Virus record (IMG/VR): IMGVR_UViG_3300025858_000010 | Span: 32,001 to 96,000 of that record | DNA from: a virus | Taxonomy: Duplodnaviria > Caudoviricetes | DNA length: 64,000 nucleotides | Direction: 5' to 3' (one strand) | Shown here: piece by piece, positions 19,667-52,302 of the stretch | Layout: the number at the start of each line of letters is the position of its first letter | Position numbering within the stretch: the stretch's first letter is position 1 | Translations under genes and position numbers: made by a program | Notes under the pieces: generated by a model | Database searches by the model: none | Seen by the model: only the letters and a program-made list of their open reading frames with translations | What the model was told of the DNA's origin: nothing

Positions 19667-20551
19667 TTATATTCTTAAATTTTTTATTTTTAATGATTTT
19701 AAATAATTTTTATATTCATCAGTAAATCTATTATTATTACAATATAATCTTTCTAAATTGGTCAAATGTTCAATTCCTTCTAAACTAGTTAATTGATTAT
19801 TAGAACAATGTAAATATCTTAAATTAGTTAAATGTTCAATTCCTTCTAAACTAGTTAAATGATTACGTGAACAATATAATATCTCTAAATTCGTTAAATG
19901 TTCAATTCCATCTAAACTAGTTAATTCATTATTAGAACAATATAATTCTCTTAAATTCGTTAAATGTTCAATTCCATCTAAACTAGTTAATTCATTATTA
20001 GAACAATATAATTCTCTTAAATTCGTTAAATGTTCAATACCATTTAAATTAGTTAATTGATTACCAAAACAAATCAATTCTCTCAAAATTGTTAAATGTT
20101 CAATGCCTTCTAAATTAGTTAATCGATTATAAAAACAATCTAATGATATTAAATTCGTTAAATGTTCGATTCCTTCTAAACTAGTTAATTCATTATTAGA
20201 ACAATCCAATTCTCTTAAATTCGTTAAATGTTCAATTCCTTCTAAACTAGTTAATTGATTATAAGAACAATCCAATTCTCTTAAATTCGTTAAATGTTCA
20301 ATGCCTTCTAAATTAGTTAATTGATTACCAAAACAAATCAATTCTCTCAAAATTGTTAAATGTTCAATTCCTTCTAAACTAGTTAATCCTTTATAAGAAC
20401 AATCTAAAGACATTATTTGATCTAATGGTTTATTTTGTTCTTTAGCTAACTGTATTATCGGAGTATCATTATCGTCATCCCAATCTTCCTCACCATAAGG
20501 ATCTATATCCGATCTGTTTAATTGTTCAAATATTTTAAAATCCTTTATCAT
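19667..20551 (-). CDS. Leucine-rich repeat protein (22-aa SDS22/internalin-like repeats) with DPYGEEDW tag
   Basis: About 11 LxxLxCxxNxLTxLxGIEHLTN repeats after MIKDFKIFE..DIDPYGEEDW. Confidence 0.92.
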   Translation of the reverse strand: MIKDFKIFEQLNRSDIDPYGEEDWDDDNDTPIIQLAKEQNKPLDQIMSLDCSYKGLTSLEGIEHLTILRELICFGNQLTNLEGIEHLTNLRELDCSYNQLTSLEGIEHLTNLRELDCSNNELTSLEGIEHLTNLISLDCFYNRLTNLEGIEHLTILRELICFGNQLTNLNGIEHLTNLRELYCSNNELTSLDGIEHLTNLRELYCSNNELTSLDGIEHLTNLEILYCSRNHLTSLEGIEHLTNLRYLHCSNNQLTSLEGIEHLTNLERLYCNNNRFTDEYKNYLKSLKIKNLRI

Positions 20552-20552
20552 T

Positions 20553-20691
20553 TTATATACTTAAATATTTTATTTTCAATGATCTTAAATAGTTTTTATA
20601 TTTCTTGAGTAAATCTATTATTGTTAAACATATGGATCAATATCCATCTATTTAATTGATCAAATATTCTAAAATTCATGAAATTGTTCAT
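20553..20691 (-). pseudogene. Collapsed LRR-gene remnant (paralog of 26375..27070)
   Basis: MNNFMNFRIFDQLNR / DIDPY joined directly to FNNNRFT..YKNYLRSLKIK; all repeats deleted. Confidence 0.75.
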
Positions 20692-20707
20692 TTCTAATGA
20701 CAAATTA

Positions 20708-21655
20708 TTATTTATCGAATTGTTCATATCTGTCATCTTGAAGAACAACATCATTTGGAAGAGGTTCTGGATTTTCTTCTGAATATTCTTCTATCTTTAA
20801 TCTTTTTCTAGCTTCTATTGGATTATCCTCACTTCCTACTACTTGTTCTATTTCGTCTTCGGTTTCTAATTCTTCATCATTAATATAATCTTCAAAATCT
20901 TCCTCTTCTTCATCTATTAACCCCATTTGTTGTTTATTAAAATTTTCCCAATATTTAATCCAACTTTCATTTGGCATTTCTCTTTTATTTCCTTTATTTA
21001 ACCCCATAGGATTATCTTCTGTTCCGCGTAATATGTCATTATCTTCTTCTTGATAATCTTCTTCTTCACCTTCATCCCAATCCTCTTTTTCTTTATATTC
21101 TGGTTCCATACCTGGATTATATGTATCTCCTACTAATTCTTCGTCATCATCTTTGAAATTTTCATAAACATCATCGATATTGATTCTTTCATCATCTATA
21201 TCTTCATCTACATCATTATCTATTTTATCACTATATTCGTCTGTTATTTCATCTTCCGGATTTTCTATTGTGTGTACTGCCTGTATTTTTTTCTGTTCCA
21301 AACCTTCTTTTACAATTGGTTTTTTTGCCCATTCCGGTGTACCAGTAAATCCTTTTAATGGAATTTCATCGATTTTATTTCCTGTGATTTCTTTAAGAAT
21401 TTCTTTAAAAGTATATTTTTTAATTTCACCTGTAATCCTATCTGATATATATACTCTTTCATTTTGAACACTGTCAATAAAACCGTCAATTTTTTTAGTT
21501 AAAATATGTTTACCGATTCTCAGAAAATCCAATGTCTGATTTGAATTATTTAATGTTTGTTTTTTTGGAGTTGTTGGTATAAGATCTATATTTCCCGGAC
21601 CTTTTCCTTTATTCTCTACGCTTTCCTTTACGAAATTCTTAAAATCTTTTATCAT
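20708..21655 (-). CDS. Acidic putative virion-internal protein
   Basis: MIKDFKNFVKE start; D/E-rich C-terminal half. Confidence 0.7.
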   Translation of the reverse strand: MIKDFKNFVKESVENKGKGPGNIDLIPTTPKKQTLNNSNQTLDFLRIGKHILTKKIDGFIDSVQNERVYISDRITGEIKKYTFKEILKEITGNKIDEIPLKGFTGTPEWAKKPIVKEGLEQKKIQAVHTIENPEDEITDEYSDKIDNDVDEDIDDERINIDDVYENFKDDDEELVGDTYNPGMEPEYKEKEDWDEGEEEDYQEEDNDILRGTEDNPMGLNKGNKREMPNESWIKYWENFNKQQMGLIDEEEEDFEDYINDEELETEDEIEQVVGSEDNPIEARKRLKIEEYSEENPEPLPNDVVLQDDRYEQFDK

Positions 21656-21687
21656 TTTTATTATTATTATTTTTTATTAATGTGTTT

Positions 21688-22476
21688 TTATATACCATTT
21701 ATGCTTGGCATATCTTCTATCATACTCAATTCTTTTCTAAGTTTATTGATTTTTCTATCAATAATATGTTGAGGAGTCCTATTATAGACATAATTCCCAA
21801 CATCACTTATTTTTTTATTTGCTATTAACCAAATAGCCTCTGCTTCATACTCATTTCTTCCCTTTACCCATCCCTCAGTATATCCAGGATCATTGGGCCC
21901 TCCTTCTTCATATCCTTTTATCATAAATATTTTTTCATTATCCTTGTCTCCTTCAGATAGATGTATCAACAATTCATCGTATCTTCCTTTTAACCATCTA
22001 TGATACCAATTTTTGTTATTGATCATGAAATCACAGTTTTTAGATAATTCATTTAATTTATTTTTAATTTTCAAAGTTATTTCATCATCTTTTGGCCATA
22101 TTTCTTCGCCATATGGATCATCTAATATTTTATCATAATTTTCTTTAACGTAATCAGTTCCTTTATGTAATTTCGGATCACCATTCTTTGTATATCCTAA
22201 AGATTTTCTACTATCATTTTTTACAAAAGTCTCATATGAGTCTATGTGTCTATCCAATGGATTATCCCACCAAAATAAATTATTCATACCTTTATGTTTA
22301 ATAAGGTCATCTGATACCCTATCGCCAACATCACCTTTCATAATAGATTCATCAGGTCCGACTTTAACCTTTTGAGATTTATTTATTTCGGCTCTAATTC
22401 TTTTTAATTGGTCAACTGTTGATTGACGAGGTAAACTTTCAAATAATTTATCATGTTTATTAATTTTTTTCGTCAT
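21688..22476 (-). CDS. Hypothetical protein with internal VKE + DPYGEEIW
   Basis: YVKENYDKILDDPYGEEIW. Confidence 0.7.
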   Translation of the reverse strand: MTKKINKHDKLFESLPRQSTVDQLKRIRAEINKSQKVKVGPDESIMKGDVGDRVSDDLIKHKGMNNLFWWDNPLDRHIDSYETFVKNDSRKSLGYTKNGDPKLHKGTDYVKENYDKILDDPYGEEIWPKDDEITLKIKNKLNELSKNCDFMINNKNWYHRWLKGRYDELLIHLSEGDKDNEKIFMIKGYEEGGPNDPGYTEGWVKGRNEYEAEAIWLIANKKISDVGNYVYNRTPQHIIDRKINKLRKELSMIEDMPSINGI

Positions 22477-22491
22477 TGTGGTTTTGATTTT

Positions 22492-22764
22492 TTAAAATTT
22501 TATTCTTGACGACTTACTATCCATTTTTTTATATTTAATTTCATCTCTTTTAATTTGTTCAATTTCATCTTTTTCGTTCCAGTTTTCTTCGCTATATGGA
22601 TCTACTTTAGAACGTTGATCGCTAATTTGTTTAGTATATTCATCTTTTAATTTTTTTGCCGATTTTTCAGATTTTCTTTTTTGTTTTTGATATTCTTCGT
22701 CAGGAGTCAATTCTTTCTTTCTTCCGAATAAATGAAATTCTTCAAAAGTTTTCATATTTTTCAT
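22492..22764 (-). CDS. Small putative virion-internal protein with DPYSEENW
   Basis: MKNMKTFEE start; KVDPYSEENW. Confidence 0.7.
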   Translation of the reverse strand: MKNMKTFEEFHLFGRKKELTPDEEYQKQKRKSEKSAKKLKDEYTKQISDQRSKVDPYSEENWNEKDEIEQIKRDEIKYKKMDSKSSRIKF

Positions 22765-22770
22765 ATTTAT

Positions 22771-23106
22771 TTATTTTTTTTTTAATTTCATGTAACTTTC
22801 AATCGAAGAAAATTCTTTTTCTATTTCTTCTATCGTATCTTTAATATTTGGATAACCATCTATTAACTTATCTTTTATATGATCAACCATTTCATACACT
22901 TCCGCATCATAGTGATACAAGTCCTGCATAAATTCCGCAATTTGTAAAGGCAGAGTTTTTTCTATCTGTTTACTCACGTAATTTATAGTATCGCCGAGTG
23001 CAGATATGATGTGTTTTTTATTAATCATAGACTGCATGACTTCATCTATTTTTTCTTCATCATTTTGATCGCCATCAAAAGATTCATATGTTTTTAATTT
23101 ATCCAT
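22771..23106 (-). CDS. Hypothetical protein, apparent paralog of 23099..23644
   Basis: MDKLKTYESF start; shared F.+..Y..D....EMV..I.D pattern. Confidence 0.65.
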   Translation of the reverse strand: MDKLKTYESFDGDQNDEEKIDEVMQSMINKKHIISALGDTINYVSKQIEKTLPLQIAEFMQDLYHYDAEVYEMVDHIKDKLIDGYPNIKDTIEEIEKEFSSIESYMKLKKK

Positions 23107-23644
23107 TATTTGTTGGTTTTTTTCTTTTCAGTTGATCTTCGACTTCATCGAAAGGATTTCTGCTTCCATTTTTAGGTTTTTTTATTTCTGTTTTATTTGA
23201 TTCATCATCTTCGTCATCTTCTTCTTCATCCTCTTCTTCCATATAATCATCATCATCGTCTTCGGCCACTTGATTTAATATTAAATTTATATTATCACCT
23301 TCAGTATAATCTTGAATTTGATCTATATATCCGATTATTTCATCCATTTCATCCATTGCGGTTGAATTTTCTATTTGATCATATATCATTTCTACGAGTT
23401 CTGCCAGCATGTTATCTCTTTTATATATTTCTTCGATGAAAGCAGAATGAGACTTAGGATATTTATTAATAACCATACTGTAAACGTGCTCTGTTGTATC
23501 TCTGAGCATTTTAACGTGTTGTTTGACTTTAATTATACCATTAATTATGATCTTAATTTTTTCATTAAGTACTTCTTTATTTGGTATATCTGAATCACCA
23601 GTTTTTTCGTAATTTTCGAATGTTTTTAATATTTCCATAAACAT
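23099..23644 (-). CDS. Acidic hypothetical protein
   Basis: MEILKTFENYE near the start. Confidence 0.65.
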   Translation of the reverse strand: MFMEILKTFENYEKTGDSDIPNKEVLNEKIKIIINGIIKVKQHVKMLRDTTEHVYSMVINKYPKSHSAFIEEIYKRDNMLAELVEMIYDQIENSTAMDEMDEIIGYIDQIQDYTEGDNINLILNQVAEDDDDDYMEEEDEEEDDEDDESNKTEIKKPKNGSRNPFDEVEDQLKRKKPTNNG

Positions 23645-23649
23645 ATATA

Positions 23650-23832
23650 TTATTTATTAAAAGTTCCAGATGTTATACCAGTGGTTATGCCGGATAAATA
23701 TAAAGCGTTGACATAACCGACGGTTGATGCTGAATTTGAATCAAAAAATGTAGGATGAGATAAGTTTAATTTTCTCTGTTCTATACTAAAATCTTCGAAC
23801 TGTTTACCTTTTTCTTGCGAACCCCGTTGCAT
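23650..23832 (-). CDS. Small hypothetical protein
   Basis: 60-aa ORF directly after a TTAATATATA motif. Confidence 0.55.
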   Translation of the reverse strand: MQRGSQEKGKQFEDFSIEQRKLNLSHPTFFDSNSASTVGYVNALYLSGITTGITSGTFNK

Positions 23833-23903
23833 TTTTGACTCGATGTTTTTATCTTATATATTAAAATTAAAAATTGAAAATATTTAATAAACAAGAAAAA
23901 AAA

Positions 23904-25752: not shown

Positions 25753-26373
25753 TTATATTCTTAAATTTTTTATTTTTAATGATTTTAAATAATTTTTATA
25801 TTCATCAGTAAATCTATTATTATAACAATATAATACTTCTAAATTCGTTAAATGTTCAATTCCTTCTAAACTAGTTAATAAATTACTAAAACAAAATAAT
25901 CCTCTCAAATTCGTTAAATGTTCGATTCCTTCTAAATTAGTTAATCGATTATAAAAACAATCTAATGATATTAAATTCGTTAAATGTTCGATTCCTTCTA
26001 AACTAGTTAATTCATTATTAGAACAATCCAATTCTCTTAAATTCGTTAAATGTTCAATTCCTTCTAAACTAGTTAATTGATTATAAGAACAATCCAATTC
26101 TCTTAAATTCGTTAAATGTTCAATGCCTTCTAAATTAGTTAATTGATTACCAAAACAAATCAATTCTCTCAAAATTGTTAAATGTTCAATTCCTTCTAAA
26201 CTAGTTAATCCTTTATAAGAACAATCTAAAGACATTATTTGATCTAATGGTTTATTTTGTTCTTTAGCTAACTGTATTATCGGAGTATCATTATCGTCAT
26301 CCCAATCTTCCTCACCATAAGGATCTATATCCGATCTGTTTAATTGTTCAAATATTTTAAAATCCTTTATCAT
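25753..26373 (-). CDS. LRR protein with DPYGEEDW tag
   Basis: About 7 22-aa repeats; first ~155 aa identical to 19667..20551. Confidence 0.92.
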   Translation of the reverse strand: MIKDFKIFEQLNRSDIDPYGEEDWDDDNDTPIIQLAKEQNKPLDQIMSLDCSYKGLTSLEGIEHLTILRELICFGNQLTNLEGIEHLTNLRELDCSYNQLTSLEGIEHLTNLRELDCSNNELTSLEGIEHLTNLISLDCFYNRLTNLEGIEHLTNLRGLFCFSNLLTSLEGIEHLTNLEVLYCYNNRFTDEYKNYLKSLKIKNLRI

Positions 26374-26374
26374 T

Positions 26375-27070
26375 TTATATTTCTAAATGTTTTATTTTTA
26401 ATGATCTTAAATAGTTTTTATATTCATCAGTAAATCTATTATTGAAACAATATAATGTTTCTAAATTCGTTAAATGTTCAATTCCTTCTAAATTAGTTAA
26501 TTGATTATTATAACAATATAATGATTTTAAATTCGTTAAATGTTCAATGCCTTCTAAATTAGTTAATCTATTATTATAACAAATTAATGTTTTTAAATTA
26601 GTCAAATGTTCAATACCTTCTAAACTAGTTAATTGATTATTAGAACAATGTAAATATCTTAAATTAGTTAAATGTTCAATTCCTTCTAAACTAGTTAATT
26701 GATTAGAATGACAATATAATTCTCTTAAATTCGTTAAATGTTCAATTCCTTCTAAACTAGTTAATTGATTATTAGAACAATGTAATAATTCTAAATTCGT
26801 TAAATGTTCAATTCCATCTAAACTAGTTAATTCATTATTAGAACAATATAATTCTCTTAAATTCGTTAAATGTTCAATGCCTTCTAAACTAGTTAACCGA
26901 TTATGATAACAAGATAAATCAATTATTTGATCTAATGGTTTATTTTGTTTTTTAGCTAACCATATTATCGGAGTATCATAGTCATCCCAATCCTCCTCGC
27001 CGTATGGATCAATATCCGATCTATTTAATTGTTCAAATAATCTAAAACTCATTAAATTGTTCATTTTCAT
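26375..27070 (-). CDS. LRR protein with DPYGEEDW tag
   Basis: About 8 22-aa repeats after MKMNNLMSFRLFE..DIDPYGEEDW. Confidence 0.92.
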   Translation of the reverse strand: MKMNNLMSFRLFEQLNRSDIDPYGEEDWDDYDTPIIWLAKKQNKPLDQIIDLSCYHNRLTSLEGIEHLTNLRELYCSNNELTSLDGIEHLTNLELLHCSNNQLTSLEGIEHLTNLRELYCHSNQLTSLEGIEHLTNLRYLHCSNNQLTSLEGIEHLTNLKTLICYNNRLTNLEGIEHLTNLKSLYCYNNQLTNLEGIEHLTNLETLYCFNNRFTDEYKNYLRSLKIKHLEI

Positions 27071-27243: not shown

Positions 27244-28332
27244 TTAGTCATTAAAGAATTCTTTTTCATCTTCTTCAAATTCACCATCAATTCGATTGAA
27301 TAAAATTCCAACATCTGGTCCTTCTTCAATATTTTCTTCAATCTTTGATTGTTTTAATTTAAAGTCAAATAATGATCCAAGCACTCCCAATCTTTTATTA
27401 ATCATTGGTAAATCTAGGGCTTTTAAAAAACTATTACAAATAGTCAACACGGTCTTATCGAATTGTGCGTCATAATCAAATATAACTTTTTCTTTATCTG
27501 TTATTTCTATTGGATGCATGCCTCTGATATATCCGAACACATTATTTTTATCATGTTTACAATAATAGTATTTTATCTTACCCGACCGTATCATATCATA
27601 TTTGGTTTTAAATTCTGAATTTTTGTTCAATAAATAATTATATAAACCAGCAGCTTTTATAGAAAAATGAGCACCTAAAACGGCTTCTAAATTAGTCGTG
27701 TCATTGACTATTTTATCTGGATAATTCGAACAATTGGTTTGACTTGATATGTTATCGACATCTTCTAAATCAAATTCTTTTCTAATTTGTTTAACAATTT
27801 TTAATATGTCTTTAATATTAAGATTATCAGCATTTGAGAACAAATATTTTATGAATTCCCAAATGCCTCCTTTTTGATCTTTTCCTCTCACAAAAGGAGG
27901 AGTTTCACTTCTAACAATCTTAATTCCAGTCGGTGAAAAATAAGATAATGGTTCAAAGAAAATACCATCTTCATAAACTATATTTTTAAGATAATTCTTT
28001 TTCTCGAAGAAAAGAATAGAATTACTTATAGTTTCTAGTTCGAAATCTTGTTTATTTTCAACTCCAAATCTTTTTGAATACTCGTCCAGGAATTTATGGT
28101 GAAGTTTCTTCATAATTACTTTATCAAAATGTAATATAAATTCTAATTCGTCTTCTTTATAATTACATGATTCTATTAATGGTTTATAAGACATATAATA
28201 AGAATTATGTACAAGTATATCATTAGATATAAAAGTATGACTTTCATCGTCCATTTCTATATCATAAACATATTCATTTTCAAACGAACCAATTTGTTCG
28301 CATGAATCTATTTCGTCAAAGTAATATTCCAT
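27244..28332 (-). CDS. polB: Split-intein C-fragment (43 aa) fused to family-B DNA polymerase palm/thumb
   Basis: VYDIEMDDESHTFISNDILVHN/S intein end; then KKNY, GIKIVRSETP. Confidence 0.9.
   Translation of the reverse strand: MEYYFDEIDSCEQIGSFENEYVYDIEMDDESHTFISNDILVHNSYYMSYKPLIESCNYKEDELEFILHFDKVIMKKLHHKFLDEYSKRFGVENKQDFELETISNSILFFEKKNYLKNIVYEDGIFFEPLSYFSPTGIKIVRSETPPFVRGKDQKGGIWEFIKYLFSNADNLNIKDILKIVKQIRKEFDLEDVDNISSQTNCSNYPDKIVNDTTNLEAVLGAHFSIKAAGLYNYLLNKNSEFKTKYDMIRSGKIKYYYCKHDKNNVFGYIRGMHPIEITDKEKVIFDYDAQFDKTVLTICNSFLKALDLPMINKRLGVLGSLFDFKLKQSKIEENIEEGPDVGILFNRIDGEFEEDEKEFFND
28204..28332 (-). mobile_element. Split intein IntC (HN|Ser+1)
   Basis: Blocks F/G VYDIE..H.F..NDILVHN followed by Ser. 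Confidence 0.9.
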
Positions 28333-29395
28333 CTATTATATTTTTTATTTTATTATTTTCTTTATATGAAATTTCGACATAATTAATATTATTTTCAATG
28401 CAAAATTTCTTTTTTATTTCGTCATTGTTTTTAATATAAAAAAGAGTTTCTTCACCACCAAACCATTTTATAGGTTCGTAGTGTTGTTTGCCGTTATATT
28501 CTATAACTAGATTATATTCTGGAAGAAAAAAATCAAAAGGTAAATAATTTATATTTTTACATTTTTCAAAAATTTTTTGTCTATTAAAAATAACATTTTT
28601 TGATTTCAAAAGTTCACTTATTTTATTCTCCATTATACTTTTTTTACAAGATGGACATCCTTGACCAAGTAAATGAAAATTAGGAATTTGTTGAAATTCA
28701 CCGTGTTTTGGACATATTATTATAACCTTGGTATAATTATTAATATATTGAACTTTATTATAATCATAATAGAAATCATGTATAATATTTGACCTTCTGA
28801 TAAAATCAAATAAATTAAGTTTACTGTCATTTATTTTACATTCTCTACATCCTTGACCAGACAAATGATTTCTTGGCGTTTGTTCAAAAACGCCATGTAA
28901 TTTACATATTATTTTAACTTTAGTTTTAGAGTCTATATAATCAACTAAAGAATAATCATATTTATCACCGTGTATTAATTTAGATTCTTTAATAAATTCA
29001 TCGTTGGTTTTTTTACTTTTTTCACCCATGCATTTTACACAACCGTGTCCTTTTGTATGATTATATGCCTGCTGATAAAAACTACCATGAGTTGGACAAA
29101 TTATTTTTACTTTATCTATAGAACTTTTATATTCAACCAATGAATAATCGTATTTATCACCGTGTATTAATTTTGATTTTTTAATGAAATCATCCTTGTT
29201 TTTTTTTAAAGATCCACCACAGAATGGACATCCCCTACCACGAAGATGAGATACTGGTTTTTGTTCGAAAATACCATGAATATGACATATTATTTTAACT
29301 CTAGTTTTAGAGTTTATATAATCAACTAAAGAATAATCATATTTATTCTTATGAATATTATCCGCTATTTTTATAAATTTTTCAGTATTATACAT
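28316..29395 (-). CDS. Free-standing homing endonuclease (Zn-binding repeats plus Vsr/DUF559-like nuclease)
   Basis: Four KYDYS..Y....KVKIIC..HG.F.Q....H..G.GC..C repeats; LPFDFFLPEYNLVIEYNGKQH. Confidence 0.85.
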   Translation of the reverse strand: MYNTEKFIKIADNIHKNKYDYSLVDYINSKTRVKIICHIHGIFEQKPVSHLRGRGCPFCGGSLKKNKDDFIKKSKLIHGDKYDYSLVEYKSSIDKVKIICPTHGSFYQQAYNHTKGHGCVKCMGEKSKKTNDEFIKESKLIHGDKYDYSLVDYIDSKTKVKIICKLHGVFEQTPRNHLSGQGCRECKINDSKLNLFDFIRRSNIIHDFYYDYNKVQYINNYTKVIIICPKHGEFQQIPNFHLLGQGCPSCKKSIMENKISELLKSKNVIFNRQKIFEKCKNINYLPFDFFLPEYNLVIEYNGKQHYEPIKWFGGEETLFYIKNNDEIKKKFCIENNINYVEISYKENNKIKNIIDGILL

Positions 29396-29418
29396 TATAT
29401 ATCCTCCAAAACTACATA

Positions 29419-29775
29419 TTAATATTTTATAACTAATATTTTATCTGTTTTTAGAATATCACAAGGTTTTACTTCTATTTTTTCACCGTTTCTAAAAACT
29501 ATCATCGAATGATCATTTGTAACAATTATTTCTTTACCAGATTTTGTTTTTAATTTCCATTTAGGTTTAGTCACCTCATGTCTTATAATTCTTTTAACTG
29601 GCGCATAATATAATCCATTTTCTTCTGTCCAATTTAAAACCTTTTCTTTAGTATGGACACTATTATGACCCATTAAAGTATTTCCAGCACTACCATTTAT
29701 TATGTTTCTGTTATAAAAATCTTCAATACTTGATATTTTATCGTTTGTGACTACGATTGAACTAGAATCAACTGA
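29419..29775 (-). mobile_element. Split intein IntN (Ser1, 118 aa)
   Basis: Starts at Ser after YCDTD; TxxH block B (VTNDHS); ends at the stop codon. Confidence 0.88.
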
Positions 29776-30513
29776 ATCCGTATCACAGTACATAGAAATT
29801 GGATTATTGCCCTTGTAAAAAGTGGCATTAGTTTCTGGATCTTTTTCCCATTTTGGATTATCGTCTAATGTTTTAACACCATTAAAATCAAATATTTTAT
29901 ATTCGTATAATAATTCGAAATCATTAACATTCCCTTCTATTTTTTTTAACTTATCTAATTTTATTTTTCTAGATAAAAGGATATCACCAAGTTCACCATT
30001 ATTAAAAAAAGGATAAGGTCTATCTATATTTTTATATTCTTTATTTAAAAAATAGTATTTATTGTCTTTAGTGGCAATATATTCAATACCGAGAAGTTTT
30101 TGCATTTCAACATCTTTTGCCCAATCGTTATAAAAATAATCTTCTGTACGTATTACCATGTATCTAATGAGATCTCTTCCCATTGCTGTAATAGCATTAG
30201 CAATTTTAGCATTCGATAAAACAAAATATTTATTCGCAAACGCTCCATATGTCGCATTCAGTACAGTTTTGAGCGCCAATTGTAAAGCTTTGTTATATGA
30301 ATATAATGCAGATTTCTCTGATATTTTATATTTGAGATCTATTATGTTTTTTAATTTGACTATTTGTTTCTTAGAATATTCTAGTTCTGGTTTTAATTCG
30401 ACCGCTTTATTATAAAGTCCTAGTGCTTGATCATATTCTTTACTTTTACAACATTGATCTGCTCTTTTTATAGTATCGTTATATGTTCTATTGATTAAAG
30501 CGATATCTGACAT
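29419..30513 (-). CDS. polB: Family-B DNA polymerase fragment (fingers/motif B to YCDTD) fused to split-intein N-fragment
   Basis: QLALKTVLNATYG, IT..GR, YCDTD|SVDSSS intein start, VTNDHS block B. Confidence 0.9.
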   Translation of the reverse strand: MSDIALINRTYNDTIKRADQCCKSKEYDQALGLYNKAVELKPELEYSKKQIVKLKNIIDLKYKISEKSALYSYNKALQLALKTVLNATYGAFANKYFVLSNAKIANAITAMGRDLIRYMVIRTEDYFYNDWAKDVEMQKLLGIEYIATKDNKYYFLNKEYKNIDRPYPFFNNGELGDILLSRKIKLDKLKKIEGNVNDFELLYEYKIFDFNGVKTLDDNPKWEKDPETNATFYKGNNPISMYCDTDSVDSSSIVVTNDKISSIEDFYNRNIINGSAGNTLMGHNSVHTKEKVLNWTEENGLYYAPVKRIIRHEVTKPKWKLKTKSGKEIIVTNDHSMIVFRNGEKIEVKPCDILKTDKILVIKY

Positions 30514-30549
30514 TAAATAAGAATTTTTATCTATTATAACTATTTAATT

Positions 30550-32065
30550 TTAATTTGTTTTAAAAACATATTTAATTGAACCGCTATCGTATATTCTATA
30601 GATTTTGCGTTTTAACATTATTTCGTGTTCAGTTTCATTAATATCGTATCCATCTTTTACTAGTTTATCTTTTCTGAAATTAAATCTGTGATATCTTATA
30701 CCGTCAATAACATAATAATAATTCGGTTGAGTTTTATGAATCATAGTAAATCCCAATTTTTCGTATAAAATTCCCTGGCTCCAAGATCTATCTGCATAAC
30801 TTATTATTTCTTTGGGTACGTATTTTTTAATGAAATATTTAAATAATTTACTAGCGCCACCTATAACTGTTGTGTTTAATTCATTACAAAATCTAATCAT
30901 TTCATAGGAACCATCAATCGACTTTTGACCCATTGATTTTCTTAATTTCCCAAACGTCATTAAAGAAACCAATTTATTTTCATAAAGCAGTCCTATTTTT
31001 ATTTTAGATGAAATATATCCCTGTAAATGATTTTTTTCCAAAAAATCTCTAGATTTTTTATTATCCGAAATATCTATTATTTCACATTTTCTAGCGTATA
31101 TTTTTTTTGATTTTCCTAGTAAATTTAATATTCTTGATTTAACGATTTCTTGTTTATAAATCCATTCATCTTGATATATGTGTATTAACTTAATTTTATC
31201 TTTTTCGGCTAAATTTGTTTTTTCTAAATGATAATTTTTATTTTTATATAACTCATTATGCCAATAAGTGCCATTAAATTCAAATCCTATATTTAGTTCC
31301 GGTAAATAAATATCAATTTCTTTTCCTATTTTTTTATCGTTTGTCAAAATAACACCATTATAATGATTTTTTATAAATTCTTTTAGCATTATTTCTTGTC
31401 CACTTTGGGAATGAGATCCCACAGGATTACAACATGTACATATAACAGTTTCTTTATTTTTTCTTTTTCTGTTTTTTAGAGTTTCTGAATCAATTTTAAA
31501 TTGATGACCTTTATCGCAAATCATAATATAATTATAATTATCGTCTATATCTATAACACCATCACATTTTAATTTTTTTAATAAATTTTTTTTATAAATA
31601 TTGTCTCTTTTTTCTTTATATTTTTCTTTGAAATTATTAGTAGATAGAAAAAATTCAACTCCATATTTTTCTAAACATGTTTTTTTATGTTTTTCTATAT
31701 TGTTATAATTTTCACTACCATATTTATCTTTATTTATTCTTTTAACAATATTCCCATATCCTTTTAGTTTAGCGTAATTATCCACACCAAATTTTTCTAA
31801 ATTGGTTATTTTCTTTTTTTCAATTGAACATTTCTTGCAAGTAAAAAAACCATAATGTGACATATTTTGGCAATATTTGGCGTACATTAAAGAATATTCT
31901 TTTTTACACCTATCACATACGACATCAATTTTTAAATGAGAAATTAATTGGTAAATCTACTGTCTTAATTATGATCTTGTTGTCATCAATAAGATATCCT
32001 AGTTTTTCATAATAAGATTTATTTCTATTTGAAATCGATACTAATGTGGTTTCATATTTTAACAT
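30550..32065 (-). CDS. Homing-endonuclease-like protein (Zn finger, KYG repeats, PD-(D/E)xK nuclease, GNAT-like tail); +1 frameshift near 31941
   Basis: EIDIYLPELNIGFEFNGTYWH; GGASKL..SYADRSWSQG; removing one T joins MLKYETT..DLPIN to SHLKIDVVCDRC. Confidence 0.75.
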
Positions 32066-45008: not shown

Positions 45009-47030
45009 TTAAATTTCCCAGTTTTCTTCACCATAAGGATCAATATCCATGTGTTTTAATCTATATTCTTCTTTTTTTTGTTTTATTCTTTTTTGTTCTT
45101 CTTCCCATTTTTCAAATTCATCACCGTCAGCTTTTTTTAAATGATCAAAGCTTATATTATATGATGATCTTGTGTGATCACCATATCCAGTATGTAATTG
45201 AACATTGAATCTATTATCAAATTTAACACAAGCTGAAACATCATCATTAATGCGTGTTATAATACCAATTTCACCTTTAAATAAAATATTGTCCATTCTT
45301 CCATTACATACTACCACATCACCAACATTAAAATAGTCTTTATTTTCGTATATTCTGTTTTCTCTTATCAATAATGAGTCGTCATCTTCCCAAGTTTCTT
45401 CCCCATAAGGGTCAACATCCATATGTTTTAATCTCATTTCCTCTCTAATTTTTTTTCTATATTCTATTTTTTCAGGATCGGTTAATTCTAATAAATAATA
45501 ATAAATATAGTAAGAAGAATTCGTAAAATCGATTCTGTCACAATCCCACAAGTGATTATTGAATCTTTCTGGAAATTTAACTGCCAATAATGGAGAATCA
45601 CTCATTGATAGAATAATACCCACTTCACCATTAAAATAAATATCATCCATTTGTCCGTGGCAAATAACGGAATCACCTATTTGAAAATCATTAATTTCAC
45701 TTTCATTTAAATGTTTGTAGTAATTTGAATTGTAGTCCATATCCCAATCTTCTTCACCGTAAGGATCAATATCCATGTATTTTAATCTCATTTCTTCTCG
45801 TTTCTTTCGTAGTTCAGATATCGGTTTTAATATATTTTTAGAAACAATATATGTATATCCAATACTATGAAATTTGACATCATAATGTATTCCTTTTATA
45901 ACAACTCCATTTACAGTAGAAGATGTATTATTTGAGTGTTTATCGATTATTGTGCCTATTTGACCATTTAGATCAAGACCGCTTTGATTTCCTGTACAAA
46001 TCACTTTATCTCCATTTTTAAAATCATAATCATTTTCGAAGTTCTCATTTAACCAATCTTCTTCGCCATAAGGATCAATATCCATATGTTTTAATCTTAA
46101 TTGTTTTAATCTTTCTTCTTTTCGTTTTTGTTCTTTGGGATCTAATAAATCTAAACAATCTTCTGGAAAGTAATATGAAGATTCATTTAAAAAATAATAA
46201 TTATTATCACGTTTTCTAATAGTGTAACTACGACCAATACAGTCTAACATATTCCGATCCCACCTATTTTTAACAACATGATTTTTTAATTTGTCATTAA
46301 CAACAACCCTATCTCCTATGTTAAATTTATGATTCGAATTTTCGTTAACACTTTCACTTAACCAATCTTCTTCACCATAAGGATCAATATCCATATGTTT
46401 TAATCTCCTTTCCTCTCTAATTTTTTTTCTATATTCTATTTTTTCTGGATCAGCCAATTCTAATAAATGATAATCGATATAGTAAGAAGAATTCGTAATA
46501 TCGATTCCGTTACAGTTCCATAAATGGTTATCAAATCTTTCTGGAAATTTAACTGAAGCATTGAAATGACGCAATGATATAATAATACCTATTTCACCTT
46601 TAAAATAGATATCATCCATTTGTCCGTTACAAATAACAGTATCACCTATTTGAAAATCTTCTATTTTACCTTCATTTAAATAGTGCATTGAATTGTAATC
46701 TTGATCAATCCAGTCTTCTTCACCATAAGGATCAATATCCATATGTTTTAATTTTACTTCTTCTTTTTTAATTTTTGATTCAATTTCTTTGTTTAAATTA
46801 AATAATTTTATTTCATCTTCTACGAACCATATGTTACCACAAAAATATTCAATGACTCTATAATCCGGTAATAAAAAGTTAACTAAACTAACTAAATAAT
46901 AATTTACACCATCGTGTGTATTTATTGTTTTAATTACACCAATTTTATCTACAAGATTTTGTCTTCTATGTCCTTTTTTCACTATAACGACATCGCCAAC
47001 TTTAAAATAATTTGAAAACTTTTTTATCAT
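45009..47030 (-). CDS. Six-module SH3/KOW-like polyprotein, each module ending in a K[HY]MD[IV]DPYGEExW tag
   Basis: Six F.[IVN]GD.V modules, six tags, an [LI]xE after each internal tag. Confidence 0.85.
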   Translation of the reverse strand: MIKKFSNYFKVGDVVIVKKGHRRQNLVDKIGVIKTINTHDGVNYYLVSLVNFLLPDYRVIEYFCGNIWFVEDEIKLFNLNKEIESKIKKEEVKLKHMDIDPYGEEDWIDQDYNSMHYLNEGKIEDFQIGDTVICNGQMDDIYFKGEIGIIISLRHFNASVKFPERFDNHLWNCNGIDITNSSYYIDYHLLELADPEKIEYRKKIREERRLKHMDIDPYGEEDWLSESVNENSNHKFNIGDRVVVNDKLKNHVVKNRWDRNMLDCIGRSYTIRKRDNNYYFLNESSYYFPEDCLDLLDPKEQKRKEERLKQLRLKHMDIDPYGEEDWLNENFENDYDFKNGDKVICTGNQSGLDLNGQIGTIIDKHSNNTSSTVNGVVIKGIHYDVKFHSIGYTYIVSKNILKPISELRKKREEMRLKYMDIDPYGEEDWDMDYNSNYYKHLNESEINDFQIGDSVICHGQMDDIYFNGEVGIILSMSDSPLLAVKFPERFNNHLWDCDRIDFTNSSYYIYYYLLELTDPEKIEYRKKIREEMRLKHMDVDPYGEETWEDDDSLLIRENRIYENKDYFNVGDVVVCNGRMDNILFKGEIGIITRINDDVSACVKFDNRFNVQLHTGYGDHTRSSYNISFDHLKKADGDEFEKWEEEQKRIKQKKEEYRLKHMDIDPYGEENWEI

Positions 47031-47074
47031 AATAGTAATATATATAAAAATTAAAATTTAAAAACACACTTATT

Positions 47075-48139
47075 ATGGAAAAATCTGAAATAAAATTAAT
47101 AAACGGTGATATATCAACATTAATAGAAGATCAATATACTAAAATATTAAGAAGCGAAAATTATAACTTTATATTTAATAAACAAACTGGATTTTTCGTT
47201 CGTTGGGGCAAAACAAAGGAAGATGACGGTGACATAAATCTGGGTCTTCCAGAATTAGTAGACATGGAAATATCCACATCATGTCACGGTATAGATAAAC
47301 CTTGTAAATTTTGTTACAAATCAAATACTCCCAAAGGTGATTATATGTCATTTGAAACTTTTAAGAAAATATTTTCAAAACTCCCACCGAGTATAACACA
47401 ATTGGCTGCCGGTATAGGAGATATTGACGGAAATCCCGATATGTGGAAAATATTTAACTATTGTAGGGAAAATGGAGTTATTCCAAATGTGACTATTAAT
47501 GGAGCTAGAATGACGGATGAATTATTTGATAGATTAGCCTTAATGATGGGAGCTGTTGCTGTATCTTTATATGATAAGGATTTAACTTATACCGCTGTTG
47601 AAGAATTGACAAGAAGAGGATTAAAACAAACAAATATACATTTCCTGTTAAGCGAAGAAACATATGATAAAGCTATAGAAACATTGAATGATATTAAAAT
47701 TGATGATAGATTAAAACATCTTAATGCTATAGTTTTTTTATCTCTTAAAACAAAAGGAAATGCTAAAAACGGTTTCACTCAATTAGGTCAAGAAAAATTC
47801 AATAATATTGTTAAATATTCACTCGATAATAATATATCGATTGGTTTTGATAGTTGTGGAAGTACTAAGTTTTTAAAATCGATTGAAGGACATAACAATT
47901 TTAAACAAATGGAAATGTTAGTAGAAAAATGTGAAGCTTCTCTTTATTCAAGTTATATATCAGTTAGTGGACATTATTACCCTTGTAGTTTTTGTGACGG
48001 TGTAGAAAATTGGGAAGAAGGCATAGACGTTTTAAATTGTGAAGATTTTTTAAAGGATGTTTGGTTTAACGAAAAAACATTAAATTTCAAAAAGAAATTA
48101 TTAAATTGTAATCGAGATTGTCCAGTTTACATAATTTAA
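47075..48139 (+). CDS. Radical SAM protein with SPASM/twitch-like C-terminus
   Basis: CX6CX2C (CHGIDKPCKFC), PNVTING, C.....YI...G..YPCSF..C...C. Confidence 0.85.
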   Translation: MEKSEIKLINGDISTLIEDQYTKILRSENYNFIFNKQTGFFVRWGKTKEDDGDINLGLPELVDMEISTSCHGIDKPCKFCYKSNTPKGDYMSFETFKKIFSKLPPSITQLAAGIGDIDGNPDMWKIFNYCRENGVIPNVTINGARMTDELFDRLALMMGAVAVSLYDKDLTYTAVEELTRRGLKQTNIHFLLSEETYDKAIETLNDIKIDDRLKHLNAIVFLSLKTKGNAKNGFTQLGQEKFNNIVKYSLDNNISIGFDSCGSTKFLKSIEGHNNFKQMEMLVEKCEASLYSSYISVSGHYYPCSFCDGVENWEEGIDVLNCEDFLKDVWFNEKTLNFKKKLLNCNRDCPVYII

Positions 48140-48172
48140 AAATGATAATTAATATATATAATAAAAAAAATC

Positions 48173-48466
48173 ATGATGAAAACTTTTGAAATGTTTAATG
48201 ACAGTACTAAAAAAGCTTATTTAGTCAAATTAACTGACGCTGATGGAGATGTTTGTGCATTCTTAATCGATGAAGAAACCGCTGAAAATATAGACAACGA
48301 TATAGCTGTTAGTATACCAGGAACAAATCAAGTCCTAGACGGTGATTCGGATTCTTACGAAAGATGGTATGCTAAAATCAAAGACATAAATGAAATAATC
48401 GAAAATGCTAAAAATAATGGATATATAGTTGATTTAGATAATGAATTTGATTTTATACATTATTAA
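48173..48466 (+). CDS. Hypothetical protein
   Basis: MMKTFEMF start; TTAATATATA upstream. Confidence 0.6.
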   Translation: MMKTFEMFNDSTKKAYLVKLTDADGDVCAFLIDEETAENIDNDIAVSIPGTNQVLDGDSDSYERWYAKIKDINEIIENAKNNGYIVDLDNEFDFIHY

Positions 48467-48471
48467 AACAA

Positions 48472-48909
48472 ATGATTAAAAATATGAAAATAAGAAATGG
48501 ATTTGTAAGTAACAGTAGTTCGTCTAGTTATATAATTAGAAAAGAAAATTTAACAAATGAACAAATTGATATGATTAAAGATCACATTAATTATTGTTGG
48601 AAATTAATAAACGATGACAATAAAAAAATTGCTTCATTTAGGAAATTTAATGAGGACGATCCATATGGTGAGGAAGAAAACCGGAAAAATGATGAAATAA
48701 ATTATAGTAAAAAAACAACAATTGATAAATTAAAAGAAATGATGGGTGATAATACACCATATAGAATAACAAACACTGATAAATGGGATGTTATAGAAAA
48801 AGATAATGTAATTGAAACCTGTACAGATATGGACAATTTTCCTATGGATTGGTTTTTAACACAAATAGTAAAAGTAGATGAATCTGATATTATTTATAAA
48901 GAATATTAA
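48472..48909 (+). CDS. MKIRNGFVSNSSSSS-family protein with internal FRKFNE-DDPYGEE insert
   Basis: N-terminal KIRNGFVSNSSSSSY motif. Confidence 0.75.
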   Translation: MIKNMKIRNGFVSNSSSSSYIIRKENLTNEQIDMIKDHINYCWKLINDDNKKIASFRKFNEDDPYGEEENRKNDEINYSKKTTIDKLKEMMGDNTPYRITNTDKWDVIEKDNVIETCTDMDNFPMDWFLTQIVKVDESDIIYKEY

Positions 48910-48928
48910 TAAAAAAAAAATTAAAAAT

Positions 48929-49440
48929 ATGAAAATAAGAAACGGTTTCGTGAGTAACAGTACTATTTTTTATGCTTTTTTTTAATTTGTTTATAAGTTC
49001 ATCAATATATTCATAAGGTATAACTATTTTTCCCTTTTTTTATAGTTACTATAACCACCATGTTTTTCTTGATATAATTTTTGAATTTTATTTAAATTTG
49101 AAAAAATAAAATCTTCAACATTAAAATCTTCAGGAATCAATATCACATAAGTATTTATATGGGTGATAGTTACGAATTCTATTACACTATATCCGATATC
49201 ATGTATGATTTATCAATATGTGGAATTGATACTGGTCCAGACGAAGGTATTATAACTTTTGTCAAAGAAAGAGATTTATTAAGAAAAATTAGAAATATTA
49301 AACAATTACCGGCTAATGATATAGATGAATTAAGAGAGAAAATGAAAAAAGAAAAAGAGGAATACGTTAGAAAAAAAGAAGAAAAAAGATCACATATCAA
49401 AAAAATAGACCCATACGAAGAGGAAGATTGGGAAAAATAA
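48929..49440 (+). pseudogene. Second MKIRNGFVSNS-family gene disrupted by an internal inversion (48961..49153)
   Basis: MKIRNGFVSNST + reverse-complement YVILIPEDFNVE... + IYMGDSYEF...KIDPYEEEDWEK*. Confidence 0.75.
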
Positions 49441-49495
49441 AATTTCGCTCATGAAAATTATTTACTTTTGTCTAAAACTTAAAGTGTTTAAAAGA

Positions 49496-49523
49496 AAATA
49501 CCACCATTGATGGGTGGTATTTT
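49496..49523. terminator. Terminator hairpin between convergent genes
   Basis: AAATACCACC-ATTGATG-GGTGGTATTT. Confidence 0.7.
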
Positions 49524-49580
49524 AAAAAATTAGAATCTTTAGATGAAATAAATATTAAGGAATATATTAAATATGAATAA

Positions 49581-50447
49581 TTATTTGAATCTATCTAATA
49601 TTGGACTTATTATAGGATTTCTTACTATATCTTCTTTACCGAATTCTACAAAACCAATGCCTGCAATGCCTTGCAAATTATCATAGGCATATTTTAATCC
49701 AGATTCTTCTGGATTTTTAAATCTGTCTATTTGATTCAGATCTCCAGATAATATGAACTTTGAATTATATCCAATTCTTGTTAATAATGTTTTAATTCCT
49801 TTGATGGTCAAATTTTGTGTTTCGTCTCCGATAAGAACCGAATCACATATGTTTATGCCCCTCATATAAGACATATATAAAGGTTCTATTATTTTATTTT
49901 CGACTAATTTTTTTCTCGTTTCTTCTCCAATTATTCTATCCATCAAATAATATAAAGAATACAAATAAGGAAAGGTTTTCATATCAAGATCTCCTCTAAG
50001 ATAACCAATAGATTCTTCACTTTCAATTATCGGAGTTATAATATAAATCTTTTCATATCCATTTTTAGAATCCCTTAATAAATCCAGAGCTTTAGCGACT
50101 GACAGATAACTTTTACCTACGCCTGAATCCCCTATACATATTGTGATTTCATTTTCATCTATTGTTTTAATAAACTCTTTTTGTTTTTGATTTTTACATT
50201 TTAAATTAACTCTTTTAAGTAATGTCTCTGTGAACTGTTTTTTAGTGAAAATAACATCATTGGTCATTTTTCTGGTGTTGTAAATAGCTTCAATTACTTC
50301 ATCATCGGCATTGAGTACCGATAACATATTGTTCTTTCGTTTACTCATAATAGTTGATGTTTTTTTGTTCGCAACAAAAAAACCAGACTTATCTCTTGTT
50401 GAAATGTCGTCCGGCTTTTTTTTGTTGAATAAAGTACGTTTAATCAT
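49581..50447 (-). CDS. phoH: PhoH-family ATPase
   Basis: GDSGVGKS, IGYLRG, YMRG, DETQN, LTRIG, GDLNQID, DIVRNP. Confidence 0.93.
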   Translation of the reverse strand: MIKRTLFNKKKPDDISTRDKSGFFVANKKTSTIMSKRKNNMLSVLNADDEVIEAIYNTRKMTNDVIFTKKQFTETLLKRVNLKCKNQKQKEFIKTIDENEITICIGDSGVGKSYLSVAKALDLLRDSKNGYEKIYIITPIIESEESIGYLRGDLDMKTFPYLYSLYYLMDRIIGEETRKKLVENKIIEPLYMSYMRGINICDSVLIGDETQNLTIKGIKTLLTRIGYNSKFILSGDLNQIDRFKNPEESGLKYAYDNLQGIAGIGFVEFGKEDIVRNPIISPILDRFK

Positions 50448-50489
50448 ACGAAATTATATATTAATTTTTTTTTCACTTTTTTTGTTAAA

Positions 50490-51087
50490 ATTGTCTGATT
50501 TTATAAGAAAATTTGGATATAATTCAATAGCCACTGGTCATTATACATTGGTTAAAAAAGAATTAAAAAGAAGAAATATTGATATACCATCTTTTGAATA
50601 TTTTCAAAAATATAATAATTTTAAAAGAAAAAGAGGTGTAGATGAATTATTCATATATGATACTGATACTCATAGAGGATATTTGAAAAAAAGAATTATA
50701 GAAGACGATTTAATAGATTATAAGTGTAAAAATTGTGGAATATCTGGGGAGTGGAATGGAAAAAAATTAATTCTTCAGTTGGAACACATAAACGGTGATG
50801 CGTGTGATAATAGATTAGATAATTTATGCTTTCTTTGTCCTAATTGTCATTCACAAACTGATAGCTATAATAGAAAAAAAATAAATAAAATTAAAAAAAT
50901 AAAATATTGTGAGTGCGGAAAAAAGATATCTAACGGTGCTTTTATGTGTGTTGATTGTAATTCCAAGACTAATAGAGTGGTCGATAGACCAACACACGAA
51001 GATTTAAAAAAAGAAATTGAAGAAACATCGCAAAACAAAGTGGCTAAAAAATATAATGTTTCTTGGAAAACTATAAGAAAGTGTTGA
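50490..51087 (+). CDS. HNH homing endonuclease, apparently 5'-truncated
   Basis: CKNCG, LQLEHINGD..DNRLDNL.FLCPNCHSQT; no credible ATG before SDFIRKFG. Confidence 0.75.
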
Positions 51088-51105
51088 AAAATTATGAAAA
51101 GTTAG

Positions 51106-51179
51106 ACGGATAGATGGGATTCGAACCCATGTTCGTGGAGTTAGAGGCCGCCGCTCTGACCAGACTGAGCTACTATCCG
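51106..51179 (-). tRNA. tRNA with CUA anticodon (amber-suppressor-like), imperfect anticodon stem, no encoded CCA
   Basis: CGGATAG/CTATCCG acceptor, GCTC/GAGC D arm, CT-CTA-AC loop, ATGGG-TTCGAAT-CCCAT T arm. Confidence 0.8.
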
Positions 51180-51199
51180 ATTATTATTAAATTTTTTTT

Positions 51200-51308
51200 A
51201 AAAACCATCTTGATCTTGTTGCCAGTTCCTCGTGCGAAACGAATTCGCTGTCCTATTGGTTCTGTGCTCTCAATTTCAAGCTTTTTGGAACAAGATCAAG
51301 TGGTTTTT
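51200..51308. ncRNA. Candidate structured RNA closed by a ~23-bp terminal stem
   Basis: AAAAACCATCTTGATCTTGTTGCCA pairs with TGGAACAAGATCAAGTGGTTTTT; GC-enriched interior. Confidence 0.5.
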
Positions 51309-51317
51309 CTAATCATT

Positions 51318-51569
51318 TCACAAAGTTAAAAATAAGGCTCCCCCTGATGTAGATATACATCCTTTACATGGTTGTATAATAGAAGATTTATTTTTAATAG
51401 CTAGATCTATTATATCTATTTTTATATTTTTTGGTAAATCTTTTATTGCTTTTTTAACAATAATACTGGTTTTACTTTCTTGACCTGGGCAATTATTTTT
51501 ATCTCTAGCCGAACCAATAAATATAAGTATATTTTTATTATTATAATTTTCTAATTTTTTAATTTTCAT
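51318..51569 (-). pseudogene. 3'-truncated flavodoxin / NADPH-FMN reductase family gene
   Basis: LIFIGSAR...SKT, IIDLA, IQPCKGCISTSGG then abrupt loss of resemblance. Confidence 0.7.
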
Positions 51570-51612
51570 TTATCAACATCATTTTAAATATCTTAATCTT
51601 ATTAAATTCTCT

Positions 51613-52302
51613 TCACCATATTATCTTCATCATGTTTTTCTTTGATCCTAAATAATTTTTATATTCATCAGTAAATCTATTATTGAAACAATATAATGTT
51701 TCTAAATTCTTTAAATGTTCAATTCCATCTAAATTAGTTAATTGATTAGAATGACAATATAATTCTCTCAAATCCGTTAAATGCTCAATTCCTTCTAAAC
51801 TAGTCAATCTATTATTAGAACAATATAATCCTCTTAAATTAGTTAAATATTCGATTTCTTTTAAACTAGTTAGTAAATTATAATTACAATATAATATTTT
51901 TAAATTCGTTAAATGTTCAATTTCTTTTAAACTAGTTAGTAAATTATAATTACAATATAATATTTTTAAATTTGTTAAATGTTCAATGCCTTCTAAATTA
52001 GTTAATGAATTAAAATGACAATATAATTCTCTTAAATTCGTTAAATGTTCAATTCCCTCTAAACTAGTTAATCTATTAAATGAACAATATAAATATCTTA
52101 AATTAATTAATTGTTCAATGCCTTCTAAACTAGTTAATCCTTTATAAGAACAATCTAAAGACATTATTTGATCTAATTGTATATTTTGCTTTTTGGCTAG
52201 CCGTATTATCGGAGTATCGTTATCGTTGTCCCAATCTTCTTCACCATAAGGATCAATGTCTTGTCTACTTAATTGTTCAAATATTCTAAAATTTTTGATC
52301 AT
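51613..52302 (-). CDS. LRR protein with DPYGEEDW tag
   Basis: About 8 22-aa repeats after MIKNFRIFE..DIDPYGEEDW. Confidence 0.92.
   Translation of the reverse strand: MIKNFRIFEQLSRQDIDPYGEEDWDNDNDTPIIRLAKKQNIQLDQIMSLDCSYKGLTSLEGIEQLINLRYLYCSFNRLTSLEGIEHLTNLRELYCHFNSLTNLEGIEHLTNLKILYCNYNLLTSLKEIEHLTNLKILYCNYNLLTSLKEIEYLTNLRGLYCSNNRLTSLEGIEHLTDLRELYCHSNQLTNLDGIEHLKNLETLYCFNNRFTDEYKNYLGSKKNMMKIIW

Follow-up and report, generated by a model that had tools for sequence, protein, structure and literature searches.

We analysed a 64,000-nucleotide stretch of phage DNA (hereafter the window), corresponding to bases 32001-96000 of the single 243,112-bp IMG/VR record IMGVR_UViG_3300025858_000010, and found that the four leucine-rich repeat (LRR) genes carried by it belong to a hypervariable family of 12 paralogues with the same caps, recovered by a six-frame search of the whole genome. 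The reading that we favour, with a probability of roughly 70%, is that of an inherited multigene family which has been diversified slowly and in an unprogrammed manner by point substitution under selection together with ordinary homologous recombination between paralogues. An initial annotation, made from the letters alone, had described four intact and capped LRR genes, and this was confirmed: all four open reading frames (ORFs) were intact, lay on the minus strand and translated as described, all matched Pfam LRR_4 (E-values from 4e-29 to 1e-52, 100-175 bits against a cut-off of 27), and they contained 10, 6, 7 and 7 repeat units, each array being followed by a capping unit. The four genes were real, but as a family they had been drawn too narrowly, since only four of the 12 members are inside the window.

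Across the 12 paralogues, 84 units of 22 residues were parsed, with 4-10 units per gene in addition to the capping unit. Entropy reached 2.0-2.75 bits at unit positions 1, 2, 4, 6, 7 and 9, which are the x of xxLxCxxNx, and was at most 1 bit elsewhere; at the nucleotide level, the variation fell on the first and second codon positions of these six variable codons. When all unit pairs were compared by the Nei-Gojobori method, the six variable codons gave a nonsynonymous divergence (dN) of 0.69 and a synonymous divergence (dS) of 0.25, a ratio of 2.77, whereas the sixteen scaffold codons gave a dN of 0.05 and a dS of 0.27, a ratio of 0.18. As dS was equal in both codon sets, the excess of dN was not the product of a local mutation hotspot. 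The 15-fold contrast between the variable and the scaffold codons is robust, whereas the ratio of 2.8 itself is rough. The same six positions also varied in 216 units taken from 69 capped homologues on other contigs. The expectation that variation is concentrated at the xxLxCxx positions of the predicted concave face was thus borne out by both the entropy and the dN/dS by position, and strong diversifying selection acts on the predicted binding face.

The same variable residues were found to be shared between units far more often than expected by chance. The 84 units held 50 distinct six-residue variable words and formed 74 identical-word pairs, against a mean of 1.0 and a maximum of 10 in 2000 shuffles that kept the composition of every column. 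Units with the same word had the same nucleotides throughout the 27-nt variable block, down to a rarer synonymous leucine codon; shared modules differed at 0-4 scaffold sites, and the polymorphic scaffold sites assorted among them. In the extreme case, units 7 and 8 of gene 19667 (genes are named here by their first window coordinate) and unit 2 of gene 26375 were three copies identical at 66 of 66 nt. Every recurring module that had been named in the initial annotation was recovered in the genes to which it had been assigned. The proposed swapping of 66-bp cassettes was upheld as to the exchange of sequence between paralogues and not as to its borders: exact identity around single shared modules ran over 34-125 nt (median 58), without fixed limits at 66 bp. 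The scaffolds flanking shared single modules were slightly more alike than random ones (p 0.0002).

Two longer tracts were also shared, both of them exact and flanked by diverged sequence. The first joins gene 19667 (19667..20551, minus strand, 294 aa), which is composed of a predicted disordered tail with the acidic motif DPYGEExW (hereafter the tag), an N-cap, 10 units with a capping unit and a C-cap, and gene 25753 (25753..26373, minus strand, 206 aa, 6 units and a capping unit). The 5′ 453 nt of gene 19667 (window 20106-20558), from the start codon to unit 5, were identical to gene 25753, and the first five units of the two genes are the same. The second tract lies in gene 26375 (26375..27070, minus strand, 231 aa, 7 units and a capping unit), where 386 nt covering five units (window 26446-26831) exactly matched a paralogue at a distance of 88 kb (genome 147295-147680). 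The fourth gene, 51613 (51613..52302, minus strand, 229 aa, 7 units and a capping unit), showed an internal tandem duplication of one unit (units 4 and 5). The two ends of the genes also had different histories of relatedness: N-cap and C-cap distances were uncorrelated among the 12 genes (Mantel r 0.16, p 0.18; r -0.08 without the recent duplicate), and the nearest neighbour by N-cap differed from that by C-cap for nine genes. Directly upstream of gene 19667, a decayed, 'empty' relic of the family could be read from the letters at 20555..20691 (minus strand), with a broken frame, in an arrangement which mirrors the tandem pair 26375/25753. Because this relic consists of the leader, the beginning of the tag and the C-cap, without repeats, the 19667 locus looks like a copy of that tandem pair in which the whole array of the upstream partner has been lost.

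In the mechanism that we propose, the variable surface would consist of six residues per repeat, placed on and just after the inner beta-strand of a curved solenoid. Specificity would arise from two sources, namely point substitution favoured by selection at these six positions, and gene conversion, unequal crossing-over and unit duplication or deletion between paralogues. The homology needed for recombination would be offered by the nearly identical 39-nt scaffolds together with any shared module; the exchanged stretches would range from less than one unit to five or more, and the scaffold would be kept uniform within a subfamily. Within the infected cell, the LRR proteins may then form a set of binders directed at different partners that evolve fast, most likely host proteins, and the shared tag may address the LRR proteins to a common reader or place.

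Each of the LRR proteins consists of an N-terminal tail predicted to be disordered and bearing the acidic DPYGEExW, a helical cap, 22-residue repeats of the internalin/SDS22 type and a helical C-cap. Residue 5 of the unit was cysteine in 84 of 84 units, and the leucine and asparagine positions were invariant or nearly so. InlJ likewise has cysteine in place of a core leucine and forms a cysteine ladder of that kind. The closest solved structures by sequence were internalin A (E 3e-60), Leptospira LRR proteins, Roco LRRs, SDS22 and InlJ (1e-26). An AlphaFold2 model of the 231-aa protein of gene 26375 had a mean predicted local distance difference test score (pLDDT) of 90 and a predicted template modelling score of 0.83, with one strand per 22 residues at unit positions 2-4 (pLDDT above 95). 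The model placed a short helix (residues 34-40) at the start of the solenoid and a helix (215-223) with the last strand at its end. Residues 1-29, including the tag, had a pLDDT below 50 and are presumably disordered. The top matches of the model in Foldseek were SDS22 (template modelling score 0.73), repebodies and InlA. What had been called a leader with constant caps turned out to be right in the caps, and the leader is a hydrophilic tail predicted to be disordered and not a signal peptide. No internalin-type signal peptide, inter-repeat Ig-like domain or wall or surface anchor was recognised; the N-terminus was hydrophilic and acidic, and no signal-peptide program was run. The proteins end about 20 residues past the last repeat, and they are probably cytoplasmic and made of LRRs only.

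The tag itself is no part of the LRR cap, and it was not restricted to the LRR genes. A DPYGEExW-type motif occurred 46 times in the six-frame translation of the genome and 0 times in five shuffled genomes, and 34 of the 46 motifs were located in about 25 non-LRR ORFs, often within 10 residues of the C-terminus. The motif thus behaves as a portable short linear motif in tails predicted to be disordered. Nine tagged non-LRR proteins and one untagged neighbour gave nothing informative with Pfam, and PHROGs gave nothing on four neighbour genes. A 673-aa ORF at window 45009-47030 (minus strand) contained six internal copies of the tag with a spacing of about 100-120 residues, and had only a weak match to Pfam SH3_13.

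The fold, the design of the caps and the selection acting on the concave face all speak for proteins that bind other proteins with different specificities. One way in which such binders could be used, compatible with the recombining inherited family proposed above, is that the tag packs them into the capsid and that, once injected, they neutralise host defence proteins. This proposal is in keeping with the portable nature of the tag, its frequent position at an extreme terminus and its predicted disordered setting, and diversifying selection is what an arms race would produce. On the other hand, the tag is C-terminal or internal in most of the other proteins, unlike the N-terminal capsid-targeting sequence of T4, and the tagged proteins matched no Pfam family that would indicate the head; we consider this use conceivable though unlikely. 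Somewhat less likely still, and offered as a speculation, is a combinatorial adaptor repertoire of the phage, in which the tag would dock the LRR paralogues and the roughly 25 tagged proteins onto a common reader (the capsid interior, a compartment or an enzyme hub), while each LRR face would capture a different fast-evolving host protein, for example a defence component. If this were true, the huge phages of the clade would keep an inherited, recombining library of binders, comparable to F-box/LRR substrate receptors.

The stability of the genes was then judged by comparison with near-identical strain contigs, which were obtained from JGI, ENA and Logan samples by exact-protein look-ups of neighbour genes. 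Two SPAdes contigs of ERZ795026, NODE_92 and NODE_97, were collinear with the genome and ended inside LRR genes. Module order in this assembly agreed with the genome in five of six comparable genes, namely 25753, 26375, 51613, the 110-kb paralogue and, over its first six modules, the 150-kb paralogue. The same order was also found in JGI contigs for genes 19667 and 25753 (sample 3300025867) and for gene 51613 (sample 3300009692). Since module order was mostly the same in independent assemblies, shuffling must be slow; and since the synonymous divergence between units (about 0.2) far exceeds the divergence between strains (about 0.1%), the repertoire of modules is much older than the strains.

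Signs of exchange were nevertheless visible between these contigs. NODE_92 differed from the genome by 11 mismatches in 7317 aligned nt, and 11 of 11 fell within 148 nt of gene 19667 (20263..20410, minus strand), in the variable blocks of units 1 and 3. Within this tract it is the 243-kb genome, and not NODE_92, which equals gene 25753. Such a cluster has the signature of gene conversion, and we regard the tract as a putative one. Two further samples contained hybrid genes in MEGAHIT contigs. In one of them, the 5′ part of the 150-kb paralogue was joined to the 3′ end of the 147-kb paralogue with the removal of 2.3 kb, the join lying within 88 nt identical in both parents and centred on a shared module. 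In the other, the plus-strand 110-kb gene was joined to the minus-strand 150-kb gene within 81 identical nt, in the manner of an inversion junction. As these junctions of 81-88 nt are shorter than the final MEGAHIT k-mer (141), they speak somewhat for real recombinants. At the position of gene 19667, contig k141_518943 of ERZ27257423 (5616-5975) held the first nine leader codons followed by an unrelated 119-aa ORF, with different genes after it. Gene starts themselves seem to act as recombination joints.

A further comparison was possible with IMGVR_UViG_3300010352_001405 (hereafter G001), a 163-kb contig and the one related contig in IMG/VR. Its subfamily A has the scaffold of the 243-kb genome, and 9 of 30 modules were common to both; in an orthologous gene at the end of the contig, a run of three modules was kept and the surroundings were different. 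Subfamily B, at about 12.7-16.9 kb, consists of four tandem genes (254-364 aa, 9-14 modules) with their own caps and a 95%-uniform scaffold, and it reuses a module set of its own. The scaffolds were 88-95% identical in nucleotides within subfamilies and 71% between them, whereas the variable blocks were about equally different within and between, and not one module was common to A and B. The lack of shared modules between subfamilies with differing scaffolds means that exchange is limited to matching scaffolds, as homologous recombination requires. Each subfamily evolves in concert.

Several points weigh against the inherited, slowly recombining family. Its functional part is an inference from the fold and the pattern of selection. 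The dN/dS values were computed from non-independent unit pairs, and the variable sites are near saturation. A PHI-type test on the 66-nt unit alignment was borderline, with p values of 0.16, 0.047 and 0.089 at three window sizes. Collinear shared blocks comprised one unit in 66 cases and five units in 2 cases, and never 2-4 units, which is not obviously predicted by simple recombination with random breakpoints. Finally, all the comparison sequences are short-read metagenome assemblies, and at least 24 of the 30 contigs fetched around three loci stop at an LRR gene, so that collapsed bubbles or chimeric joins could yield the 453-nt identity, the cluster of 11 mismatches and the hybrid genes. 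The MEGAHIT contig k141_1404311 of ERZ27257449 is a closed cycle of 5,822 nt through a hybrid gene, and a JGI contig of sample 3300025867 holds the 5,822-nt block between genes 25753 and 19667 twice with zero differences. Together they show that the assembly graph is ambiguous here, the alternative being a real duplication or circle formed through LRR genes in direct repeat. A 5.8-kb tandem duplication was accordingly discounted as evidence, its copies being identical and the same cycle being closed in the MEGAHIT contig.

A rival reading is that the sharing of modules is largely an artefact of chimeric or collapsed short-read assembly. The contig ends, the circular contig and the contig that runs through the same cycle twice are all as such an artefact would have it, and the exact repeats of 386-453 nt exceed the usual k-mer and read lengths. 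However, the independent SPAdes assembly was collinear, with the same module order in five genes, and the JGI contigs agreed at genes 19667, 25753 and 51613. Moreover, identity around single modules extends over at most 125 nt, which is below the length of a 150-nt read, and the different phage G001 has the same family architecture with a partly conserved orthologue. We therefore hold an artefact to be quite improbable as the main source of the sharing.

Identical modules might also result from convergent selection for a few favoured binding words, without any exchange. A limited set of residues (Y, D, H, N, S, F, I) is used at the variable positions, and with AT-biased codons there is little room for synonymous choice. 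Yet free assortment accounts for about one of the 74 identical pairs, the shared words have in common the rarer leucine codon and, weakly, the flanking scaffolds, two of the shared blocks span five units, and the two subfamilies of G001 share no word under like selection. Convergence as the whole explanation is very improbable.

Least of all do we credit a programmed, high-frequency shuffling of cassettes, of the type known from variable lymphocyte receptors (VLRs), pilE/pilS or vlsE, by which expressed genes would be rebuilt during infection. Single modules in varied contexts, identity tracts of about one unit and the hybrid genes of some assemblies would all suit it. However, no silent or promoterless store was found: a search of the whole genome for scaffold-like 39-mers, allowing up to 8 mismatches, returned 84, all of them inside the 12 family ORFs and none elsewhere. 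As there are no silent units outside intact genes, a donor library of the VLR, pilS or vls type does not exist in this genome. Start codon, caps and stop are present in the family copies, 11 complete genes ending in TAA or TGA and the twelfth running off the end of the contig. In addition, the repertoire is old relative to the strains, no RecA/UvsX-type recombinase was matched in the genome, and no RVT_1 match to a reverse transcriptase was obtained there although the controls were positive. Active shuffling, for which repeat order across strains had been set beforehand as the check, is argued against by an order that was mostly fixed in independent assemblies, and the analogy with lamprey VLRs is not supported as a mechanism, there being no silent cassette library and module order being the same in five of six comparable genes.

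As a design, the lamprey and hagfish VLRs, and the repebody scaffolds built from them, do resemble the phage family in their constant caps, variable number of modules and concave-face diversity. They differ in that a VLR is put together somatically, within a single incomplete gene, out of hundreds of silent cassettes that flank it, whereas the phage units are all in intact genes with no hint of somatic assembly, and in that the phage caps are without the disulphide-rich LRRNT and LRRCT of VLRs. As to variation of the VLR type, module order was stable between samples as seen in consensus assemblies, which cannot show somatic variation. A diversity-generating retroelement, as in Mtd of Bordetella phage BPP-1, is likewise phage-encoded and makes a ligand surface hypervariable at the first two codon positions, but it was ruled out by the missing reverse transcriptase match and by the invariance of many scaffold adenines, and the family has no template repeat and an LRR fold instead of a C-type lectin.

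The remaining paralogues are dispersed over the genome. Outside the window, the six-frame search placed them at genome 1-795, 109952-110935, 146470-150350 (four genes), 170046-171503 and 231731-232297, and distant LRR genes were also seen near genome 2-4 kb. One member of the family has an N-terminal extension. At genome 170046-171503 (plus strand, 485 aa), the LRR part stands behind a 330-residue N-terminal domain and the tag is found in mid-protein, between both parts; Pfam and PHROGs gave nothing informative on the 330-residue domain. No sign of genome-wide TAG or TGA recoding was found, 7 of 174 long ORFs ending in TAG. About 430 nt from gene 51613, ARAGORN called a tRNA with the anticodon CUA (window 51105-51179, minus strand), an amber suppressor labelled tRNA-Pyl.

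The record has a G+C content of about 25%, and among its genes are those of a large terminase subunit and of a family-B DNA polymerase interrupted by intein and HNH elements. At window 27244-31887 (minus strand), adjoining the tandem LRR pair, pieces of this polymerase are interleaved with an intein-splicing domain and with HNH/homing-endonuclease ORFs. A polymerase piece was 78% identical in protein sequence to the 735,411-bp 'uncultured phage' records LR756501 and LR756503, with more distant kin in Tenacibaculum phage PTm1, the Prevotella Lak phages and other huge phages. From this kinship, the source was taken to be a huge phage of an uncultured clade. Its host is predicted to belong to the Bacteroidota. 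No match was obtained when 8.5 kb of the window were compared by megablast with the GenBank phage collection. At window ~54823-55530, between a poly(A)-polymerase/CCA-type gene and a DnaJ gene, a TnpB-like gene (Pfam Cas12f1-like_TNB, 235-237 aa) was present in 6 of 10 strain contigs, and none was called at that site in the other 4 of the 10, which suggests a polymorphism of a mobile element.

The closest known mode of evolution is that of the LRR clusters of plant resistance genes (NLRs and Cf-type receptor-like proteins; e.g. the RPP8 family, PMC6771003), and the pattern seen here fits a slow, inherited birth-and-death process of this kind with gene conversion and unequal crossing-over. In both cases the genes are inherited, clustered as well as dispersed and mosaic, with unequal crossing-over, a variable number of repeats and a nonsynonymous excess at the exposed x of xxLxLxx; the likeness is one of mode and not of homology. 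In the phage family, dN exceeded dS at the exposed positions by a crude pairwise estimate, and mosaic paralogues and strain tracts were seen in short-read assemblies. The phage family differs from the plant genes in being phage-encoded, in its LRR-only proteins of 140-300 aa, which lack nucleotide-binding, kinase and membrane parts, and in its 22-residue bacterial/SDS22 repeat, cysteine ladder and acidic tail motif. By sequence and fold, the Listeria internalins (InlA, InlB, InlJ) and SDS22/PPP1R7 are closest, with the same 22-residue repeat, but the caps differ from those of the internalins, and we are dealing with a family of phage paralogues and not with bacterial surface proteins. Many paralogous binders are also known from the repeat families of giant viruses (ankyrin, FNIP/IP22, MORN), which are thought to engage host proteins. 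These differ from the phage family in virus realm, repeat type and host.

The family is not confined to this genome. Of the 120 best database hits, 69 come from other contigs and have the tag, the caps, the cysteine ladder and the variable positions in common with it; these homologues are mostly 140-200 residues long with 2-4 repeats by a strict pattern, occur several per contig, and are annotated only as hypothetical or generic LRR proteins. A search of the GenBank phage collection (INPHARED) returned no capped member, and PHROGs matched only the LRR part of the protein, in three long families annotated as of unknown function. Full-text literature searches did not find the family described. 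A preprint mentions LRR domains in virion-associated proteins of phage Goslar, with a different architecture.

LRR families under diversifying selection are classic in the immunity of plants and jawless fish and in bacterial pathogens, and the same LRR design is met here in a huge phage as well as on many uncultured contigs related to it. For those who assemble such phages from short reads, the LRR paralogues are a practical hazard. As dispersed recombination substrates, they may also drive deletions, duplications and inversions of tens of kilobases. The proteins themselves are small, cap-stabilised, natural binder scaffolds, and if their targets are host proteins, the family would mark an arms-race interface from which new defence or receptor proteins of the host could be discovered.

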